Part shown: positions 40,958-56,054 of the stretch, in pieces
Numbering within the stretch: the first letter of the stretch is position 1
Layout of the letters: every line of letters begins with the position of its first letter
DNA from: Escherichia phage ECML-117
DNA: 64,000 bases
Reading direction: 5' to 3' (one strand)
Sequence record: JX128258
Notes under the pieces: generated by a model
The model's database searches: none
Told to the model about the DNA's origin: nothing
Seen by the model: only the letters and a program-made list of their open reading frames with translations
Made by a program: the position numbers and the translations under genes

Positions 40958-41932
40958 TTAAAAATACTCCATATCGGTAATATCACGGAAGCACTTATAC
41001 AAGGCAGAGCGCGGCACGTCAACGATGCCAAAGTTAAAGAATTTATATGTCAGATATTTGTTGCGATAGTTCTCGCGATTCTCCCAAAGCATTTTTCTCT
41101 CTGCCATAGGCATTGAACCAGCGGAGACGCGGAAAGGAATCATTTCGCCTTTCTCATCAACATATTTTGGATTGACAACCACAAATGATCCAAGGTATCC
41201 TTTCGCAACTAAGCCTTCAGCCTCTTTCGAACGCTTAGTGCGACCCAACTCATCAATGAATGCCTCGTTGTTGTTCTCCATCATCTCAACGAAGTCTATG
41301 ATCAATCCTTCTTCATCGGTCCACGGCTTGTCCTTCCACACATCACGTGACTTTGGCGTCGCGCGGCCATGCTTGTATTTGCCCGTCCAAGACTTGCCAT
41401 ACAAGCCTTCATAGCCAAGCTGGTCTGCTTCGATTTGCATTGCCGCGTACTGTTCCATATTTTCGATGTTTCGATATTCGAGAGCGCGAAGGAATGGGCG
41501 TCGACCATGGTTGATGAGGTGCTGATTGACTTCAGCAACTCTAGCGCGATAGTTTGCATAACGCTTTTCAAAAGGCAAATCAGGGTCGCTGAAGTCATCA
41601 AACACCCACCATGTAAAGTTAGTGATTGCATCAGTATTCATGCAGGCTGTATAGGCTTGCTGCATGACGTTCTTGTCGTTCGGATTGCCGTCAATAAGCT
41701 CTCCATCAAGGCCATGAATCAATTCACCCAAAAAGAGGAACTCTTTTTTGATTTGAATGTTGCGCAGAGCCATGCCGGACGTGCCCATTGGCAAGTTGTC
41801 ATACGCCATCGCGCGTATGCCATCGACCTTGAAGGACAACCCGCAAGGCAGCGGCACATCTTCGCCGCGCTCGATAATTTGCTTACGCTGGCAACCCTTC
41901 ATTGGTTTTAATGCTTTGATTTCCCCTGCCAT
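40958..41932 (-). CDS. ATP-dependent nucleic-acid ligase
   Basis: 324 aa with nucleotidyltransferase motif I KVDGIR (KxDG). Confidence 0.55.
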   Translation of the reverse strand: MAGEIKALKPMKGCQRKQIIERGEDVPLPCGLSFKVDGIRAMAYDNLPMGTSGMALRNIQIKKEFLFLGELIHGLDGELIDGNPNDKNVMQQAYTACMNTDAITNFTWWVFDDFSDPDLPFEKRYANYRARVAEVNQHLINHGRRPFLRALEYRNIENMEQYAAMQIEADQLGYEGLYGKSWTGKYKHGRATPKSRDVWKDKPWTDEEGLIIDFVEMMENNNEAFIDELGRTKRSKEAEGLVAKGYLGSFVVVNPKYVDEKGEMIPFRVSAGSMPMAERKMLWENRENYRNKYLTYKFFNFGIVDVPRSALYKCFRDITDMEYF

Positions 41933-42525
41933 TATTCGCGACCCTCATTCATTACTTGTTCCATTGCGTAGGCATAAGCCTGATCAGTCGATTTGATGAA
42001 CGTGCCGTTGTACATCACCCCTTTACGGTCCTTGATGTCTTCATAGGCGGCTTGAGCGCAATCAGAAAGTCGAAGTCCATAATCATGCGCTACGCCGGAA
42101 AGATAATCCACAGCGGCCATGATGGTGACATCAATATCCATGCTCTGATTTTTAGCAATGGCGTCGCCAAGTCGTCCGAGCGTCTTTGCCAAGCGAAGGA
42201 TAAAGGAATGAGGGTGAGCGCCTTTGTCAGCGCAACCGCCGCCGTTAATGTCTTCGATTTTTGCGCCATTTTGCGCGGCAAGAATAGTTAACACAACAAG
42301 GCAATCGCCGATGTCGTCCTTGATGGCGGCTTGTAAATCACAGATGGCCTGCTCTGTATATCCGATTTCAGGGTCAAAGAACACAAGGTCATGTAATTGA
42401 TCAACGTGGTCGGTCAACTCCCCAAACTCGCTAATAAGCTTCGGGTATTGGTCTTTAAGGCCGCAACCTTTGATGATGTTACGGTCAGAAGCCCACTGGC
42501 GAATGTTTGCATAAATCTGGTTCAT
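41932..42525 (-). CDS. MazG-like nucleotide pyrophosphohydrolase
   Basis: 197 aa all-alpha with EFGELTDH and acidic metal-binding motifs. Confidence 0.5.
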   Translation of the reverse strand: MNQIYANIRQWASDRNIIKGCGLKDQYPKLISEFGELTDHVDQLHDLVFFDPEIGYTEQAICDLQAAIKDDIGDCLVVLTILAAQNGAKIEDINGGGCADKGAHPHSFILRLAKTLGRLGDAIAKNQSMDIDVTIMAAVDYLSGVAHDYGLRLSDCAQAAYEDIKDRKGVMYNGTFIKSTDQAYAYAMEQVMNEGRE

Positions 42526-49736: not shown

Positions 49737-50278
49737 TATTTACTCCATATGTCATATACGCCAATTTGTTGGCAGACTTTGTGCAGTAATATTACGTCGT
49801 CTAATGCACGGTGCTTCTGTTCATATTTTCCGAAATATAATTCATACAGCTCTTGAAGCTTAACTCTTCGGCCAAAAATAGGCAAGGTTTGCTCGACTGT
49901 ACAAATGTTTATTTCTGGAAAATTAACATCACCAAGTGTAAGACCTTCGCGCTGTAATGCATAGTCAAGAATGTTTTTATCAAACGCATGGTTGTGCGCG
50001 ATAGTTGCATCCGTCTTCTTGAAGATTTCTTTTAGTTGCGGAACGAAATGGATGAAGGGTGGATTACACTCAAGGTCTTCGTTGGTTAATCCGGTAATCT
50101 TTGTGATGATTTCTTCAATCACAATTTCAGGATTAATTATGAACTCGAACGTTTCAAGAATCTCTTTGCCGTCCGTCAGCAGTCCTGCAAATTCAATAGG
50201 GCGCGGCTGCATTCCAAGCGGCGCTTTCGGGTGCACGGTTAATCCGGTTGTTTCGAAGTCATAAGGGAGAAATAACAC
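49736..50278 (-). CDS. DnaQ-like 3'-5' exonuclease
   Basis: Exo motifs DFETTG, HNHAFD, HRALDD; AGGAGG RBS; coupled to the polymerase gene. Confidence 0.75.
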   Translation of the reverse strand: MLFLPYDFETTGLTVHPKAPLGMQPRPIEFAGLLTDGKEILETFEFIINPEIVIEEIITKITGLTNEDLECNPPFIHFVPQLKEIFKKTDATIAHNHAFDKNILDYALQREGLTLGDVNFPEINICTVEQTLPIFGRRVKLQELYELYFGKYEQKHRALDDVILLHKVCQQIGVYDIWSK

Positions 50279-50332
50279 ATTGGCCTCCTACAAAAAGGCC
50301 GCCCATTAGGACGGCCACAGATTCACGATTCG

Positions 50333-50884
50333 TTATGCAGTGTACGGAGTACCGTCTTGATTCAAGCGCACGATAAACTTCAAATCAACGCCGATGATTT
50401 CACGCGTATCAAAGATCACATAGTTGTAACGACGCTGACCAGCAATATTTGGGTTGGTGTGAGAGTCGGTCACAACTTCCTGCGCAACCTGAATGCCTTC
50501 TTCTTTAAAGAACTTGCGCCATTCAGCAAGTTCAGCGGCAGTCACGTGCATACCAAGATGGCTAACCTGATTGTCGTGCGCATCGATGTATTCGATGTTT
50601 TCGTGAATCCAGTTGCAACCTTTTGTATAGTCAAGAATTTCAAGCTCAAGAGGCTTACCAGCGCCGCCATCGGTGCCGTTGCCAGCCTGATAGTTGAAGC
50701 GCAAGTCAGCTTCGTTGGTGCAATCGCCGCGCTGACCCTTAAAGACATCAGCTTCAAATACGCGACCAGTAGCAACAACGTGATCATGGAACCATTCTGT
50801 CAGGCCGATTTTAGCCAGGAAATTCTGTGCGCGCTGAGCACCTGGAATTGACAGGGCGATTTGTTCAATTTTAAAGTGTGGCAT
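50333..50884 (-). CDS. VOC/glyoxalase-fold-like protein (tentative)
   Basis: 183 aa with two beta-alpha-beta-beta-beta-like modules (FKIEQIAL...; SHLGMHV...); weak. Confidence 0.3.
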   Translation of the reverse strand: MPHFKIEQIALSIPGAQRAQNFLAKIGLTEWFHDHVVATGRVFEADVFKGQRGDCTNEADLRFNYQAGNGTDGGAGKPLELEILDYTKGCNWIHENIEYIDAHDNQVSHLGMHVTAAELAEWRKFFKEEGIQVAQEVVTDSHTNPNIAGQRRYNYVIFDTREIIGVDLKFIVRLNQDGTPYTA

Positions 50885-50980
50885 TTTGTTTCCTTAATTA
50901 AATATTATTGATTAATTACTGTGTTATCTTCGTCCTGTTTCTTTTCAGGAGCGGGTGTGACAACTTCAAATGTTCGTGAT

Positions 50981-51664
50981 TTATTTCCCAAATGGAATAT
51001 CAGTACCAGACATAAAACGCCATGCGCCCGTAATTAAGATATGGCGAATGAAGTCAGCAATTACTTGCGGCTCAGTCTCCAATCCATTCATCAACGCCTT
51101 TTTCTGGTATTCAGCAGCATACTCAGGAGTCCAGCCGCGAGTCGCGCAAACAGCATCTTCAATCTGTTTGGACATACCAGTGCCGCGCAACTTGTTAGGA
51201 CTAATAGAAAATACCGTGATCCCGTATTTAGGCGTAAGCTCGTGAGCCATCTGCTTGCTAATCATGAGCGCAGCAGCCTTGGAAGCATTATAACACAAGC
51301 TGGACGTCATAGGAATATGCGCAGCGTTGGAAACGATATTGATCACAAAACCTTTGTTGTCGATAAGACTTTTCAGCGCGGCTTGAGTCGTGTTGACGAA
51401 AGAGAAGGCGTTGGTGTGCATAACGCGATTGAACTCTTCGTAGTTAACATCTTCAAACCAGTTGTTGGAGTTGACGCCAGCACAGTTGATCAAGCCTTCT
51501 ACATCATATGGGCTTAAAATTTCTTTCATCTGTTTCGCGTCGCGGACGTCATATCCGTATGCTGAATCGATTCCAAGCACGTTATGACCGTAAGCGCCAA
51601 GGGTGTCAAAAATAGATTTACCAAGACCGGAATTGGAACCTGTTACAACAATTACTTTTTTCAT
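50981..51664 (-). CDS. short-chain dehydrogenase/reductase (classical SDR)
   Basis: N-terminal VTGSNSGLGKS cofactor motif and catalytic YNASK (YxxxK). Confidence 0.7.
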   Translation of the reverse strand: MKKVIVVTGSNSGLGKSIFDTLGAYGHNVLGIDSAYGYDVRDAKQMKEILSPYDVEGLINCAGVNSNNWFEDVNYEEFNRVMHTNAFSFVNTTQAALKSLIDNKGFVINIVSNAAHIPMTSSLCYNASKAAALMISKQMAHELTPKYGITVFSISPNKLRGTGMSKQIEDAVCATRGWTPEYAAEYQKKALMNGLETEPQVIADFIRHILITGAWRFMSGTDIPFGK

Positions 51665-51729
51665 TTATTTATCCTTTTTGGACTTCGTTTCGATGAGATA
51701 AATATAACTCATCGAAACGCACAAGTAAA

Positions 51730-52602
51730 CTATTTATTGAAATTAATATTGTGGGTGTTGACGAGACGTTCACACATGGCGCTGTAAACACCATCGTCGT
51801 GTATAGAGTCTTCGTGCTTCAGGCCGCTGATTGCAAAGCGTGTAAGCTTGACAATCTTAAGCTCGAACAGATGCCACATGTGGTAGTCTTCCGGCGTTTT
51901 CAACGTTACGCCATTAGGGAAAAGCACCTGCATAACCTGGCCAACCATCACGGCATTATCGCCATAGACAGCGTTGCGCTCACGGAAGGTTGCTGCCATT
52001 GCATCAAGAATATCGGCGGCAGTTGCCGGAGATTGTTCAACTTCCACAGTCTTAGTCTCTTCTTGTCCTGTTGCGCTTGGATCAATTGCTAATTGTTGCA
52101 CCACTTCACCTGCCTTGCAAAGATTAAATGTAAAAGCGATTTTATTTTGAGCAACGGAATTATAATACAATGCTTCATCTTGCATCCGCGCGAGCACGTC
52201 TTGTCGGTCGTCGAATACATTGATGATTCGATAATCGCCGTGCCGCAATGCGTGCGATAGCCATGCAGATTTCATAATAGTTGATGGACGTTTGTCGCCA
52301 TAGTCTCTCATCTTGATTGTAAATTCATCAAAAGGAAAAACATTGTCCAGACGTTCAAAAGTCACTTGTCTGTATTTTTCTGGCCTTGCAGTCCAATATT
52401 CAACCGCCTCACCGCGAAGAGATGCCGACTCTACTGCTGATGCAATGCGAGGATAGAACTGATCATAACCAATACCGCTGTGATAGTCATCATAGTCTGA
52501 CAACGGACCTGCCACCTTTATGCGGTCCAAGCGCCAACGGTCATCAAACAGCGTTCCGTCAAGGTCGAATACGTTTAATATTTGGTTATTTTTAATACTC
52601 AT
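51730..52602 (-). CDS. HAD-superfamily phosphatase/nucleotidase with extra C-terminal domain
   Basis: Motif I FDLDGTLFD near the N-terminus; additional ~110-aa C-terminal domain of unknown type. Confidence 0.55.
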   Translation of the reverse strand: MSIKNNQILNVFDLDGTLFDDRWRLDRIKVAGPLSDYDDYHSGIGYDQFYPRIASAVESASLRGEAVEYWTARPEKYRQVTFERLDNVFPFDEFTIKMRDYGDKRPSTIMKSAWLSHALRHGDYRIINVFDDRQDVLARMQDEALYYNSVAQNKIAFTFNLCKAGEVVQQLAIDPSATGQEETKTVEVEQSPATAADILDAMAATFRERNAVYGDNAVMVGQVMQVLFPNGVTLKTPEDYHMWHLFELKIVKLTRFAISGLKHEDSIHDDGVYSAMCERLVNTHNINFNK

Positions 52603-53402
52603 CCCTTTGACACTCCATCTTTAGCAACTGGATTGTTGGTGATTGGCGCGGCATCCCAAAACTGGATGCGCAACTCTTCTTGCTGTGCCGTGGTATCCAT
52701 CCAATCACGATACCAAGGGCAATGGGCTTTGCCATGACGAGGAAACGCGCATTTACCCATACCGATGCATTGCGGCTGTAGTAAAGGATTAGCCCACGGG
52801 TGCACCTTGAGGACTTCCGCAACCATTGCGCGAAATACTTCTTGATACTCGCCTTGGGTGCGCGTGCACAAGCGGTTGGAAGCCATCTGTTGCAGCGTGC
52901 GCAAGTTGAACTTTGCCATGATATGCGTTTGCATATTAGAAGGCAACACGGCACGTGCATCTTGAATCTCTGCGCCAGCCGCGCGAAGTTCTTGGTATAG
53001 GGCGTCAATGGTCGCCATTGCATCATCCCAGGTGTTAGCCAACTTCAAACGCTGCTCGTCGATTCTCTCGCCGATAACCCTGTCAGGGTCGTCATACTCA
53101 AACGCTTTCGGACGAATCGCATCAAACGCAGAAGACTCCTGAGCGCGGCTGGTGCGTTCTTGATATGCGCCTGTGCGTGTGCGTACCATCTGATGGGTCA
53201 TGTTCTTTGATACATCTGTGATATCAAAAATATAGTCCACAAAGTCAAAAGGTGACTTGATTGTATCGAGCATGTAGCGCCAATGCTCTTGCTTCTCTGA
53301 TTCCGTCATCTCAGAGACAGGCTTACCAGTCATGCGCGTGTTCTTTGTTTCCAGCAAAAGGTCAAGTGCATCTTGGGTGTATCGAATTAATTCAACTTTC
53401 AT
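52599..53402 (-). CDS. ThyX-like (flavin-dependent thymidylate synthase family) protein, divergent
   Basis: VRTRTGAYQERTSR aligns to the ThyX RHRxxSxxxxSxRY motif with His replaced by Thr; NLRTLQQM...EYQE resembles the ThyX NARSLxNL...E motif; extra Cys-rich C-terminus. Confidence 0.45.
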   Translation of the reverse strand: MKVELIRYTQDALDLLLETKNTRMTGKPVSEMTESEKQEHWRYMLDTIKSPFDFVDYIFDITDVSKNMTHQMVRTRTGAYQERTSRAQESSAFDAIRPKAFEYDDPDRVIGERIDEQRLKLANTWDDAMATIDALYQELRAAGAEIQDARAVLPSNMQTHIMAKFNLRTLQQMASNRLCTRTQGEYQEVFRAMVAEVLKVHPWANPLLQPQCIGMGKCAFPRHGKAHCPWYRDWMDTTAQQEELRIQFWDAAPITNNPVAKDGVSKG

Positions 53403-53415
53403 TTTAATTATCCTA

Positions 53416-53862
53416 TTAACGGTAATTCACTAGTTGCTGATCACCAGAGAAGGTGCAATGATAAACGAATTGTGCGTTATAAAGCAACTGAAAACTTTTC
53501 TTTGGTTCACTATTAGCACTCATCGATGTGAATACTTCTGCACCGGAACGGTTTTCACCGATTAAGTTGACAAAGCCGCCAGTTGTGCGAGGTTGAACGA
53601 AAGTGAAGCGTTGCATCCACGGAGTCCGGTTGGCACCTTTACCTGTGAATCCTTGAATCTGAATATTCAGACCTTCTTGCTCGTTCACACCGATGTAAGT
53701 GGTAATCTTTGCACCAGTCGTTGCTGCGGTCTTCCCGTCCATCGCTTCGCAATCGTAAACAGCGATTGAATCGGAAGTGCGGATGGCAGCTTCAGTCGCT
53801 TCCATATACATGGTGCCGAGAATAGCAGTTGCGGCAAGCGCGATTCCAGTGATTCGTTTCAT
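53416..53862 (-). CDS. secreted protein (148 aa)
   Basis: N-terminal signal peptide (ITGIALAATAILGTMYMEATEAA). Confidence 0.45.
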   Translation of the reverse strand: MKRITGIALAATAILGTMYMEATEAAIRTSDSIAVYDCEAMDGKTAATTGAKITTYIGVNEQEGLNIQIQGFTGKGANRTPWMQRFTFVQPRTTGGFVNLIGENRSGAEVFTSMSANSEPKKSFQLLYNAQFVYHCTFSGDQQLVNYR

Positions 53863-53927
53863 TTTCGTTTCCTCTATGAGTTCTGCTTCAATGATTAAAG
53901 TATACGCCCATTGAAGCAGAAAGCAAA

Positions 53928-54923
53928 TTATTTATTAGCAATATAAGCAAATTTTTGATAGTTATTTGCTTTGATGAGTTTTTCGACTTCAACAAGGTCA
54001 TGAGCGACGTCATCAAGCAAAATGTTTCGCCAGGTAGCGAATCTACCGACACTAAAAACGTTCAAATCCATAGTCAGCTGCAGGAGTAGGGCGTGTCGCA
54101 AGTCTTTCGGAATGTCGACAATCTTGCCATATTTCTGGTCGACCTTTTCAACTTCTTCAAGAGCGATATCACTCCATGAAAGGCCAAATGCCGTCAACAC
54201 TTCGTCGACTTCTGCGCGAAGCTTCATGTCACGGTAACGAGTGATGCCTCCAGCGGCTTCAACTGCAGCTTCACTTACGCTGACTAAAGGAATTGTTTCA
54301 ATGATAAGCGTGTCACCAGTAATTGATGCGCGGTAAGTTCTGACGGAGTAGTCAGGGAAGTAAATTGTCTGATACAAATCACACTTACGTTTAATCTTAA
54401 AGCGGTAAACGCGAATGTTTGCTTTATCAAATGAAAAATCAAGCTTTTGATCAATTCCAGCAAGCTTCATCATGACTGGCAGCGGCGACGTGTTGATGAT
54501 TGGCGTCTCGCTATAGCCGCAAAGAGTATCAACAGGAGTATTAAAGAATATGCGGTCACCCAGTTTGTCGACAAGCTGATCATAAAAGTCATCAGGCGCA
54601 ATATAACGCGTTGCAGTCTTAAGCTTCATGATTGAACGGCTGCCAAACTGATTGGTGACCTTCATGGAATACATATTGGCAAGGTTAATTGGGCAATGGT
54701 CATGGTAGTAGTTGCCGCGAAAATACACAGCCTTGTCAACTGTCACGGCCTTAAAGGGGATTCCGGTAATACGGCTTACTTCTTCGCCACGGAAGCGTAG
54801 CAATGCCTTGTGCTGTTGCGCTCGTTCCCCTGCTTCGTACACAACAGAGTTCGGGAAGTGACACGCTGTGATAAGTCCTGCCAGTCCGCCGCCGATAATC
54901 ATTACAGGTTGTTTCATGTTCAT
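53928..54923 (-). CDS. FAD/NAD(P)-binding flavoprotein oxidoreductase
   Basis: N-terminal dinucleotide-binding motif VMIIGGGLAGL; C-terminal GRFATWRN resembles the GR(L/F)A motif of UDP-galactopyranose-mutase-like enzymes (tentative). Confidence 0.5.
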   Translation of the reverse strand: MNMKQPVMIIGGGLAGLITACHFPNSVVYEAGERAQQHKALLRFRGEEVSRITGIPFKAVTVDKAVYFRGNYYHDHCPINLANMYSMKVTNQFGSRSIMKLKTATRYIAPDDFYDQLVDKLGDRIFFNTPVDTLCGYSETPIINTSPLPVMMKLAGIDQKLDFSFDKANIRVYRFKIKRKCDLYQTIYFPDYSVRTYRASITGDTLIIETIPLVSVSEAAVEAAGGITRYRDMKLRAEVDEVLTAFGLSWSDIALEEVEKVDQKYGKIVDIPKDLRHALLLQLTMDLNVFSVGRFATWRNILLDDVAHDLVEVEKLIKANNYQKFAYIANK

Positions 54924-55055
54924 TTGTCCTTTGTGGGTGATATGAGAAGTATAATAGCTAAATTATTTTACAGCAACAAGTCATTTTATTTAGTACAGAT
55001 GAAAAAAGACCCACAACAAGTGTGGGTCAATTACCGCTGCATAACCGTCCTAAGG

Positions 55056-55901
55056 TTATTCCGCTTGATCACCGTCTTCGGCATCGTCGTTGGATTCAAC
55101 ATCGACAAACTCGATGTGACCCATCTCTTCCAGCTTGCTCAGGTAGGAGCGAACGGAAGCGCCAAACAGTTGATCTTTAACTTTTTCGCCCAGCTCATCG
55201 ATAGACTGCGCCACGCCAACTTCGCCTTCTTTGATCGCCGCCAGAACGCGTCCACGGGTGGAGTGCTCTTGCGGCTGGCTCAGGCCATTGCCAGTGTAGA
55301 TGAAGTGAGTAGCTTTTGCACGACGCTGACCGTTTGCCTTTTTAGCGGCCTTACGTTCTGCGATGGCTTTGCGACGTTCTTCAGCTTCTTTCTTACGCTG
55401 TTCTTTCTGCTGTTCTGCAGCTTCTTTCGCCGCAATCTTAGCAGCTTCACGCTCTGCCTTGCGTTTCGCTTTAGCTTCTTCTTTAGCCTTCTCTTTTTCG
55501 GCCTTCGCTGCAGCACGGGCTTGATCACGCTCTGCTTTCTTAGCAGCAGCTTGCTCAGCTTTCAGACGCTTGGCTTCTTCTTTAGCCTTCGCCTTTTCGA
55601 TTTCTTTTGCTGCTTTAGCGGCTTCACGCTCTGCCTTCTTAGCAGCAGCCTTTTCTGCACGCTCTTTGGCTTTCTTCGCTGCTTCTTCAGCACGTTTCTG
55701 AGCCTTCTCATCAGCAGCCTGCTTACGTTTCAGTGCAGCTTCTTCACGCTTGGCTTGTTTTTCCTGCTCACGCTTTTGGCGTTTTTCTTCGGCTTCTTTC
55801 TTTTTAGCCAGGCGTTTTTCTTCAGCCACGCGACGACGTTCTGCTGCAGCTGCTTGTTTTTCTTCTTTAGATAATACTTTGATTGCTTCGGCCATGTTCA
55901 C
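55056..55901 (-). CDS. Lys/Ala/Glu-rich coiled-coil protein with C-terminal globular domain
   Basis: About 190 aa of AEEKR/AKKA low-complexity repeats, then a ~80-aa non-repetitive acidic C-terminus; DNA shows internal tandem repeats. Confidence 0.55.
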   Translation of the reverse strand: MNMAEAIKVLSKEEKQAAAAERRRVAEEKRLAKKKEAEEKRQKREQEKQAKREEAALKRKQAADEKAQKRAEEAAKKAKERAEKAAAKKAEREAAKAAKEIEKAKAKEEAKRLKAEQAAAKKAERDQARAAAKAEKEKAKEEAKAKRKAEREAAKIAAKEAAEQQKEQRKKEAEERRKAIAERKAAKKANGQRRAKATHFIYTGNGLSQPQEHSTRGRVLAAIKEGEVGVAQSIDELGEKVKDQLFGASVRSYLSKLEEMGHIEFVDVESNDDAEDGDQAE

Positions 55902-56054
55902 AGTCCTTAAATAAATTAGTTTATTTTATATTCCCCGTTTGGGATAACTTAATTATGCCTTCAGTCGCCGCCAGTAGCAACTAAAAACTCTGGCGGCAAT
56001 GCCACTTTAATTAAACTGATTTTCAGTTTTATTTTTCGTAAATTTACGTCAACA

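Follow-up and report, generated by a model that had tools for sequence, protein, structure and literature searches.

A ThyX-fold flavoenzyme with an altered active site in a conserved phage gene module: a possible role in thymidine hypermodification

Introduction

The closest described relatives of the protein considered here are the orthodox flavin-dependent thymidylate synthases, ThyX (TM0449, Rv2754c; EC 2.1.1.148), FAD-bound homotetramers that make dTMP from dUMP with methylenetetrahydrofolate and NAD(P)H and in which Tyr91 and Ser88 are strictly conserved and critical. Their mutation cripples the Thermotoga maritima enzyme (TmThyX), flavin oxidation being about 1000-fold slower in the Tyr91 mutant, and the folate site is stabilised in its closed form by a hydrogen bond between His53 and Tyr91 (PMC11940539, PMC8316439). 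TmThyX also accepts free formaldehyde, by way of a flavin N5-carbinolamine. Among ThyX-fold enzymes, one alone is reported in another pyrimidine C5 role: PolB, the UMP/dUMP C5-methylase of polyoxin biosynthesis (PDB 4P5A) (PMC5954106). Phage base hypermodifications are known to start with homologues of a different family, ThyA, whose altered active sites differ by a few diagnostic substitutions (T4 dCMP hydroxymethylase; the dUMP hydroxymethylases of SPO1, ViI and M6; RB69 gp48 5-hydroxy-dCMP synthase); these variants make the mononucleotide precursor of the hypermodified base, sugar-handling enzymes are encoded nearby, and one cluster contains a genuine UDP-galactopyranose mutase (UGM) (PMC8989533, PMC13326640). 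Here we describe a ThyX-like gene of Escherichia phage ECML-117 (sequence record JX128258), of which 64,000 nucleotides, called the window below, were analysed.

Relatives of this gene are found in the Pbunaviruses, which are among the most used Pseudomonas therapy phages. According to Yee et al. (bioRxiv 2025 preprint; PMC12191111), the DNA of Pbunavirus F8 and 14-1 resists enzymes with TG in their sites, about a quarter of the T, at TG, being replaced by nucleosides of mass 362 in F8 (a sugar-alcohol derivative) and 390 in 14-1 (a circularised aldopentose derivative), and the hypermodified T decides the sensitivity to END-nuclease and to many restriction enzymes. The Pbunaviruses are presented there as phages lacking the previously implicated hypermodification genes; no biosynthetic genes were identified and ThyX is not mentioned (PMC12191111). 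Wifceviruses also resist restriction, by a mechanism that the literature does not explain. The window belongs to a Wifcevirus-type E. coli myophage: over 6 kb (50000-56000) it is 95-97% identical to the E. coli/Shigella myophages WFH, ManiWeber Bas99 and kaset, and ManiWeber is resistant despite 38 EcoRI, 8 EcoRV and 92 EcoCFT_II sites in its genome. Our literature search returned no paper that links ThyX to hypermodification in general or to that of Pbunavirus.

Fold and active site of the ThyX-like protein

The gene and its active-site motif are located as follows.

52599..53402, minus strand: ThyX-like flavoenzyme gene, 267 aa (open reading frame (ORF) call, Pfam Thy1, AlphaFold2 (AF2) model with Foldseek)
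53145..53183, minus strand: variant ThyX motif RTRTGAYQERTSR (residues 74-86), aligned with R78-R90 of TmThyX, RHRIASYNELSGR

The ORF is a real gene, with AGGA 8 nt upstream of its ATG and a TGA stop that overlaps the ATG of the next gene (ATGA, 52599-52602). An earlier note on this DNA had called the product ThyX-like, and this was borne out. Pfam Thy1 (PF02511) matches residues 5-203 over profile positions 2-191 of 191 (E=6.7e-30; 104.7 bits against a cut-off of 24.8), phrog_85 'thymidylate synthase' matches with E=1.4e-37, and the closest solved relatives are the T. maritima and Mycobacterium tuberculosis ThyX, at E of about 5e-5 (4.5e-5 for TmThyX, 3n0b). The AF2 model, built from 63 homologues, reaches 88 in the predicted local distance difference test (pLDDT) and has a predicted template modelling score (pTM) of 0.82, and is confident throughout, C-terminal segment included; the top 50 Foldseek matches in the PDB are all ThyX, the best being 1o27_A (E=8.6e-11, probability 1.0, TM score 0.63 by query and 0.76 by target). 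Judged from profiles and model together, the protein is certainly a ThyX-fold flavoenzyme, predicted to bind a deoxyuridine-type mononucleotide.

Its sequence also tells that it is not an orthodox ThyX. It shares with the orthodox enzymes the fold, the dUMP-site residues and the spacing of the motif, and differs from them in the replacements described below, in 64 additional C-terminal residues, in four cysteines, in having a partner flavoprotein and in its score against the NCBIfam thyX equivalog TIGR02170, where 81.4 bits fall under the cut-off of 87.9 and leave it outside that family. It is no closer to PolB, which gives a weaker match than orthodox ThyX (E=0.14 for 4p5a vs 4.5e-5 for 3n0b), still methylates, and works in Streptomyces secondary metabolism, away from the gene context of the ThyX-like protein.

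Residues were mapped in T. maritima numbering through a HMMER alignment to 3n0b and 1kq4 and an alignment of 131 sequences. The latter was made up of the query, two reference ThyX and the best hits of at least 200 aa from an exhaustive HMMER search that covered 1.84 billion cluster representatives and gave 1668 hits at E<=1e-3. The motif reads RTRxxAxxxxTxR vs RHRxxSxxxxSxR in orthodox enzymes, the three Arg being kept and the His and both Ser replaced. Of what the earlier note had said about it, the exchange of His for Thr (at His79) stands, while the altered spacing does not, since both motifs span 13 residues in register. The replacements mapped are H53I, E58D, H59F, H79T, S83A, N85Q, S88T, G89S (within the motif), Y91A (just after it), E144Q, N169Q and H178R. 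Tyr91 and Ser88, strictly conserved in EC 2.1.1.148, and His53, which pairs with Tyr91, are hence Ala, Thr and Ile here.

Retained are Gln75, Arg78, Arg80, Tyr84, Glu86, Arg90, Arg147, Asn163, Arg165 and Arg174, among which Gln75, Arg78, Arg80, Arg90, Arg147, Arg165 and Arg174 bind the dUMP phosphate or polarise the uracil in TmThyX; Gln75, Arg78, Arg80, Arg90, Arg147 and Arg174 are almost invariant across the 131 aligned relatives. Across 63 sequences, 76 columns are invariant, all substrate-binding arginines included. A search of 5.8 billion proteins gave 772 relatives at E<=1e-5, and the best 120 of the 772, mostly from contigs of 60-75 kb, were analysed: the RTR...RA reading is present in 120/120, from 99% down to 53% identity. 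Being fixed in all these closest homologues, the variant motif is more than chance.

A phage subfamily with constant partner genes

The ThyX-like gene lies in a run of minus-strand genes that encode, in order, a 331-aa protein, a 148-aa ORF, the ThyX-like protein, a HAD-type protein, a short-chain dehydrogenase/reductase (SDR), a 183-aa protein, a DnaQ-like exonuclease and a DnaE-type polymerase.

53928..54923, minus strand: 331-aa FAD-type flavoprotein, UGM/protoporphyrinogen oxidase (PPO)-like, the constant partner of the ThyX-like gene
53416..53862, minus strand: 148-aa ORF that separates the ThyX-like gene from the flavoprotein gene; its N-terminus, MKRITGIALAATAILG..., resembles a signal peptide
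51730..52602, minus strand: HAD (PNKP-type) phosphatase fused to a helical C-terminal domain (Pfam HAD_PNKP, E=8e-8, residues 11-142; phrog_4889), its start overlapping the ThyX-like stop
50981..51664, minus strand: classical SDR, accessory member of the block (Pfam adh_short, E=2.6e-31)
50333..50884, minus strand: 183-aa accessory protein, weakly glyoxalase/VOC-like (Pfam Glyoxalase_4, E=0.091, below threshold)

Cellular genomes were scanned at one genome per species (185,579 species) with a pattern that allowed Thr, His or Ser at position 79. Among the best 80 loci, 77 are orthodox at all positions and 3 are variant (Ile53, Phe59, non-Tyr91). All three variant loci adjoin PB1-type polymerase and exonuclease genes and are, for that reason, phage DNA inside metagenome-assembled genomes, so that among the loci searched the altered active site is found only in phage contexts. 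The 331-aa flavoprotein was present within 6 kb of none of the 77 orthodox cellular ThyX loci.

The viral side shows a tight partnership. In 80 viral loci obtained by an IMG/VR scan (40-93% identity; partner genes sought by tblastn) the flavoprotein gene is present in 79 and the HAD gene in 77, and the order 331-aa, ThyX-like, HAD is kept even on fragments of 4-7 kb; the HAD and helical halves are often separate ORFs. The SDR gene is clustered in 33 of the 80 loci and the VOC-like gene in 20, the latter only where the SDR is also found; both are absent from Pbunavirus. This accessory pair might diversify the attached group. Counts for cultured phages, by host genus, are equal for the ThyX-like and 331-aa proteins in Pseudomonas (292 each), Escherichia (25 each) and Serratia (9 each), and 10 vs 8 in Rhizobium. 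The module also occurs in phages of Serratia, Pantoea and Xanthomonas and in many uncultured viruses.

Three unrelated phage types (myo-, podo- and jumbo phages) carry the ThyX-like, UGM/PPO-like and HAD genes, adjacent in two of them. In the Rhizobium jumbo phage RHph_Y65 (206 kb) the three lie within about 6 kb, and in the Cronobacter podophage Ss1 (42 kb) a homologue of the 331-aa protein overlaps the ThyX-like gene (phmmer E=8e-61). As to gene content, 70 of the 207 kb of RHph_Y65 were read, where dihydrofolate reductase, a 2-oxoglutarate (2OG)-Fe(II) oxygenase, dUTPase and ribonucleotide reductase are also encoded; in Ss1 the helical domain to which the HAD domain is fused gave no match to the HAD protein of the window.

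The gene is also a target of selfish elements. Inteins are inserted beside the active-site motif in two distant ThyX-like proteins, and two further ones carry N-terminal extensions that by eye are GIY-YIG-like and HNH-like (all four in the set P0157, P0158, P0161, P0170). That its changes are fixed and that inteins and homing endonucleases target it argue that the gene is under selection. The long ThyX-like proteins contain inteins, such N-termini or unassigned extensions, and in none of them was a fusion to a partner protein found; a cluster look-up of the distant representatives returned only metagenomic entries labelled thymidylate synthase. In 20 of the IMG/VR loci (e.g. L063, 3115..3624) the ORF directly downstream of the ThyX-like gene belongs to a 169-aa family (MNIFYLDHDP...), which gave no Pfam match and has no counterpart in the window.

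Concerning the partners, the 331-aa protein gave no match in Pfam, NCBIfam, named PHROG families or PDB sequences, and only structure prediction was informative: its AF2 model (pLDDT 88) is a two-domain FAD protein whose resemblance to UGM is at the level of fold, with 18% identity and PPOs scoring nearly as high. For the VOC-like protein and the C-terminal half of the HAD protein, searches of Pfam, PHROG, NCBIfam and PDB sequences gave nothing. The best PDB matches of the SDR are FabG and carbonyl reductases, and as these are generic the idea of a folate or pteridine reductase was rejected.

Pbunavirus relatives and the modified nucleosides

The orthologue in Pbunavirus (phiKTN6 gp59, 14-1 gp60 and that of F8, annotated 'FAD-dependent thymidylate synthase') is syntenic, about 50% identical, and has the same motif, cysteines and flanking flavoprotein and HAD genes, which stand in the same order in F8, 14-1, phiKTN6 and LBL3. 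It differs in having about 40 inserted residues that lie between C218 and C228, and Pbunavirus lacks the SDR, the VOC-like protein and the 148-aa ORF. In the F8 and 14-1 genomes it is the only pyrimidine-C5 enzyme annotated. Between these two phages, identity is 96-98% for polymerase, exonuclease and flavoprotein, 94% for the ThyX-like protein and 79% (16 gaps) for the HAD-fusion protein, which, being the most divergent enzyme of the block between phages that differ in their sugar, is a candidate determinant of the specificity for the attached sugar.

The masses of the two nucleosides can be reached by two routes. For a group O-linked to 5-hydroxymethyldeoxyuridine (5-hmdU) the sums are 258+122-18=362 and 258+150-18=390, and for an aldose C-linked to deoxyuridine 228+150-18+2=362 and 228+180-18=390; both fit, so the masses do not discriminate between the routes. 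The enzymes of the known 5-hmdU routes (SP10, PhiW-14, ViI, M6), namely ThyA-family dUMP hydroxymethylase, 5-hydroxymethyluracil (5-hmU) DNA kinase and amino-acid or pyrophosphate transferases, are not annotated in the ManiWeber or Pbunavirus genomes, for which no dedicated profile search was made.

Proposed function and alternatives

The best explanation of these data is that a divergent ThyX-fold flavoenzyme, kept in phage contexts, acts within a dedicated operon and not as a stand-alone thymidylate synthase. Going one step further, we infer from sequence, predicted structure, gene context and two papers (one a preprint) that the ThyX-like protein may quite possibly be the C5 carbon-transfer enzyme of a thymidine-hypermodification module, a proposal that is held tentatively. 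The enzyme would still activate C5 of a deoxyuridine nucleotide and would take the carbon unit from a reduced-flavin N5 adduct. Because the His53-Tyr91 pair and Ser88, which serve in closure of the folate site and expulsion of the carbinolamine hydroxyl, are lost, the reaction would not be the orthodox reductive methylation, and its product would be a C5-substituted deoxyuridylate, either of the hydroxymethyl type or already with a sugar-derived carbon chain. This product would then become the sugar or sugar-alcohol thymidine derivative of Pbunavirus DNA; the HAD protein would trim phosphates, and the neighbouring flavoprotein would act on the sugar or on the redox state of the flavin. The same modification would account for the restriction resistance of Wifceviruses. 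Such a role seems slightly likelier than plain dTMP synthesis because the site is non-orthodox, the partners are phage-only, and the members examined chemically are modified with no genes assigned. Its logic would be like that of the phage ThyA variants, whose fold is unrelated to that of ThyX and which are accompanied by a cognate deoxynucleoside monophosphate (dNMP) kinase and by transferases or kinases, none of them annotated here.

A more specific version of this chemistry, which we regard as improbable, is that the ThyX-like and UGM-like pair attach a carbon chain from a sugar directly to C5 of dUMP. An open-chain aldose, and not formaldehyde or methylenetetrahydrofolate (CH2-THF), would be bound by N5 of the reduced flavin as a carbinolamine or iminium adduct, the activated C5 would attack the adduct, and the exocyclic alkene would be either reduced or trapped by a sugar hydroxyl; a pentose with reduction would give 362 (F8) and a hexose with trapping 390 (14-1). 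UGM forms a flavin-C1 sugar adduct, and this, together with the formaldehyde shunt of TmThyX, provides the precedents that make the route chemically plausible. If true, the 'methyl' carbon of the hypermodified T would derive from sugar and not from folate, and DNA hypermodification would have its first ThyX-fold enzyme, with a new flavin-mediated formation of a C-C bond.

Several points weigh against the proposed role in hypermodification. Foremost, the TG specificity of Pbunavirus requires an enzyme that acts at the level of DNA, which a mononucleotide enzyme cannot supply. Hypermodification has been reported for Pbunavirus (F8, 14-1) only, Wifcevirus showing restriction resistance alone. Functions in the subfamily are predictions from sequence and gene context; all residues that bind or activate dUMP are kept, and the sequence dictates no product other than dTMP. 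Thymidylate synthases are common phage genes at this genomic position; by annotation, none of dNMP kinase, 5-hmU DNA kinase and glycosyltransferase is found in these genomes; the UGM likeness of the partner is one of fold, at 18% identity and with near-equal PPOs; and the linkage may in part be inherited synteny, most carriers sharing the DnaE-type polymerase/exonuclease module.

The most serious competitor, and a realistic and only slightly less favoured possibility, is an ordinary dTMP synthase with a lineage-specific active site, which would use dUMP and CH2-THF and compensate elsewhere for the lost His and Tyr. The UGM/PPO-like flavoprotein would then serve it as redox partner or as an NAD(P)H-dependent reductase, its dUMP would come from the protein with HAD and helical domains, and thymidine would be hypermodified by other genes acting on DNA. 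The Pfam score well above threshold, the matching fold and the retention of all dUMP-binding and activating arginines speak for this explanation, and the gene stands in the replication module by the polymerase, as is usual for phage thymidylate synthases, and in RHph_Y65 near those of dUTPase and ribonucleotide reductase. Eukaryotic UGMs whose structures have NADPH or NADH bound are among the top Foldseek matches of the partner, and TG specificity implies a post-replicative hypermodifying step anyway. It has to be reconciled, however, with the crippling effect of Tyr91 and Ser88 mutations on TmThyX, Tyr91 being Ala here and its hydrogen-bond partner His53 being Ile, and with the score under the equivalog cut-off. 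Orthodox ThyX works without a partner flavoprotein, and it would be odd for an equally good thymidylate synthase that the variant is unused by cellular genomes among the best 80 loci.

It is improbable that a ThyX-like tetramer with the UGM-like protein modifies DNA after replication, acting on T or U at a short motif; one route would reverse the last ThyX half-reaction, with hydride passing from the T methyl to FAD and a sugar hydroxyl adding to the exocyclic methylene. Such an enzyme would explain why the Pbunavirus modification is TG-specific; in the window 26.6% of T is followed by G, near the quarter of T replaced in Pbunavirus. The masses fit as well (T + tetritol - 2H = 362; T + pentose - 2H = 390), and the changes of Tyr91 to Ala and Gly89 to Ser in the active-site loop could open space for a polynucleotide. 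Yet the phosphate-clamping arginines of the mononucleotide site are all retained, the Pfam search detected no DNA-binding domain, and we assess the reverse hydride transfer from methyl to flavin as energetically unfavourable. We know of no ThyX-fold protein that binds DNA. The protein is moreover acidic (pI 5.9), although isoelectric points are not discriminating as a hint of DNA binding. Finally, a catalytically dead ThyX relic with a structural or regulatory role would fit the loss of several residues deemed essential in orthodox ThyX, but is very unlikely given the 76 invariant columns in 63 sequences with all substrate-binding arginines, the retention of the gene in hundreds of phages and inteins near the active site, which are typical of genes whose function must persist.

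The ThyX-like, UGM/PPO-like and HAD-fusion genes, with SDR and VOC-like genes in some lineages, are a candidate gene set for the Pbunavirus modification. If the hypermodification role holds, base hypermodification would have recruited a ThyX-fold enzyme for the first known time, in parallel to the repeated ThyA-family cases. If it does not, the subfamily would still be a natural experiment on a ThyX working without Tyr91, Ser88 and His53, with relevance to the debated mechanism of ThyX and to the design of inhibitors.

A putative four-cysteine site

52602..52793, minus strand: C-terminal extension, residues 204-267 (64 aa), with CIGMGKCAFPRHGKAHCPWY; predicted helical and compact, pLDDT 92-95 over residues 200-250
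52866..52868, minus strand: codon of C179, in the core, at the position of TmThyX Asp176, 2 residues past the Arg174 equivalent

Past the Pfam domain the protein continues for about 64 residues, which are absent from the solved ThyX aligned here. The CIGMGKCAFPRHGKAHCPWY segment contains three Cys (C212, C218, C228) and two His (His223, His227). With C179 these are the only four cysteines of the protein, and all four are invariant in 120/120 relatives; His223 varies between H, W and Y and His227 between H, Q and N. In the solved ThyX aligned here the set is absent, the C179 position being Asp (T. maritima), Ser (M. tuberculosis) or Ala (T. thermophilus).

All four Cys are present in 74 of the 131 aligned sequences, nearly all others lacking them as a set and ending in a different helix. 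They are also found in Clostridium phage phiCP26F, which has an orthodox active site, and in 77 cellular ThyX with orthodox residues at positions His53, His59, His79, Ser83, Ser88 and Tyr91, from Bathyarchaeia, Planctomycetota, Deferribacter abyssi, Thermincola, Anaerolineales and others. This orthodox clade is the closest cellular relative (26-33% identity), with which, as with phiCP26F, the ThyX-like protein has in common a THQxVR context, Arg178, the positions of C179, C212 and C218 and a fourth C-terminal Cys; its active site is orthodox and no UGM-like gene neighbours it within 6 kb.

It follows from these alignments that the Cys set predates the altered motif and is no signal of new chemistry. 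The earlier note had correctly pointed to a Cys-rich C-terminal extension, if imprecisely as four Cys/His, and had named it beside the altered motif; as a mark of such chemistry it was rejected, given the presence of the same Cys in the 77 orthodox cellular ThyX and phiCP26F. Its suggestion that the enzyme may not be a simple thymidylate synthase has fared better: though unproven, it is strengthened by the loss of critical residues, by a phage-only subfamily tied to a flavoprotein and by the hypermodified T of Pbunavirus.

The four Cys are probably a metal site (Zn or Fe-S) inherited from the orthodox clade. Judged from taxon names, many of the orthodox carriers seem to be anaerobes, a hint in favour of an Fe-S cluster over zinc; the literature search gave nothing relevant on Fe-S, zinc or cysteine in ThyX. 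Among orthodox cellular ThyX, a large clade carries this uncharacterised four-Cys site, which none of the solved structures aligned here represents.

Other features of the locus

55008..55028, minus strand: terminator-like hairpin directly upstream of the six-gene block, 8-bp stem and T-run
50297..50316, minus strand: terminator-like hairpin directly downstream of the block, before the exonuclease gene, 8-bp stem with 7 G-C pairs and T-run

These are the two strongest terminator-like hairpins in the promoter/terminator scan of the window, and they flank exactly six genes, from the 331-aa gene through the VOC-like gene. Their support for an operon unit is weak because the total count of terminator-like sites was no higher than in shuffles. 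Inside the block, the 148-aa ORF looks like a lineage-specific insertion into the operon, limited to Wifcevirus, as it has no family match in Pfam and PHROG searches and, among the 80 viral loci compared, its homologues are confined to two Wifcevirus loci (L010, L011). The 183-aa VOC-like protein has no sequence match in the PDB.

About 10 kb from the block, a MazG-like pyrophosphatase (41932..42525, minus strand; Pfam E=0.011, a weak match; so annotated in ManiWeber) could act in nucleotide-pool editing. A 354-aa antisense ORF (54810..55874, plus strand) overlaps a Lys/Ala/Glu-rich 281-aa gene (55056..55901, minus strand), labelled TolA-like or structural protein in relatives, and is probably an artefact of the low-complexity repeat. 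Restriction sites in the window number 17 for EcoRI, 9 for EcoRV, 77 for EcoP1I and only 1 for XbaI; TA is depleted (observed/expected 0.69) and GC enriched (1.29).

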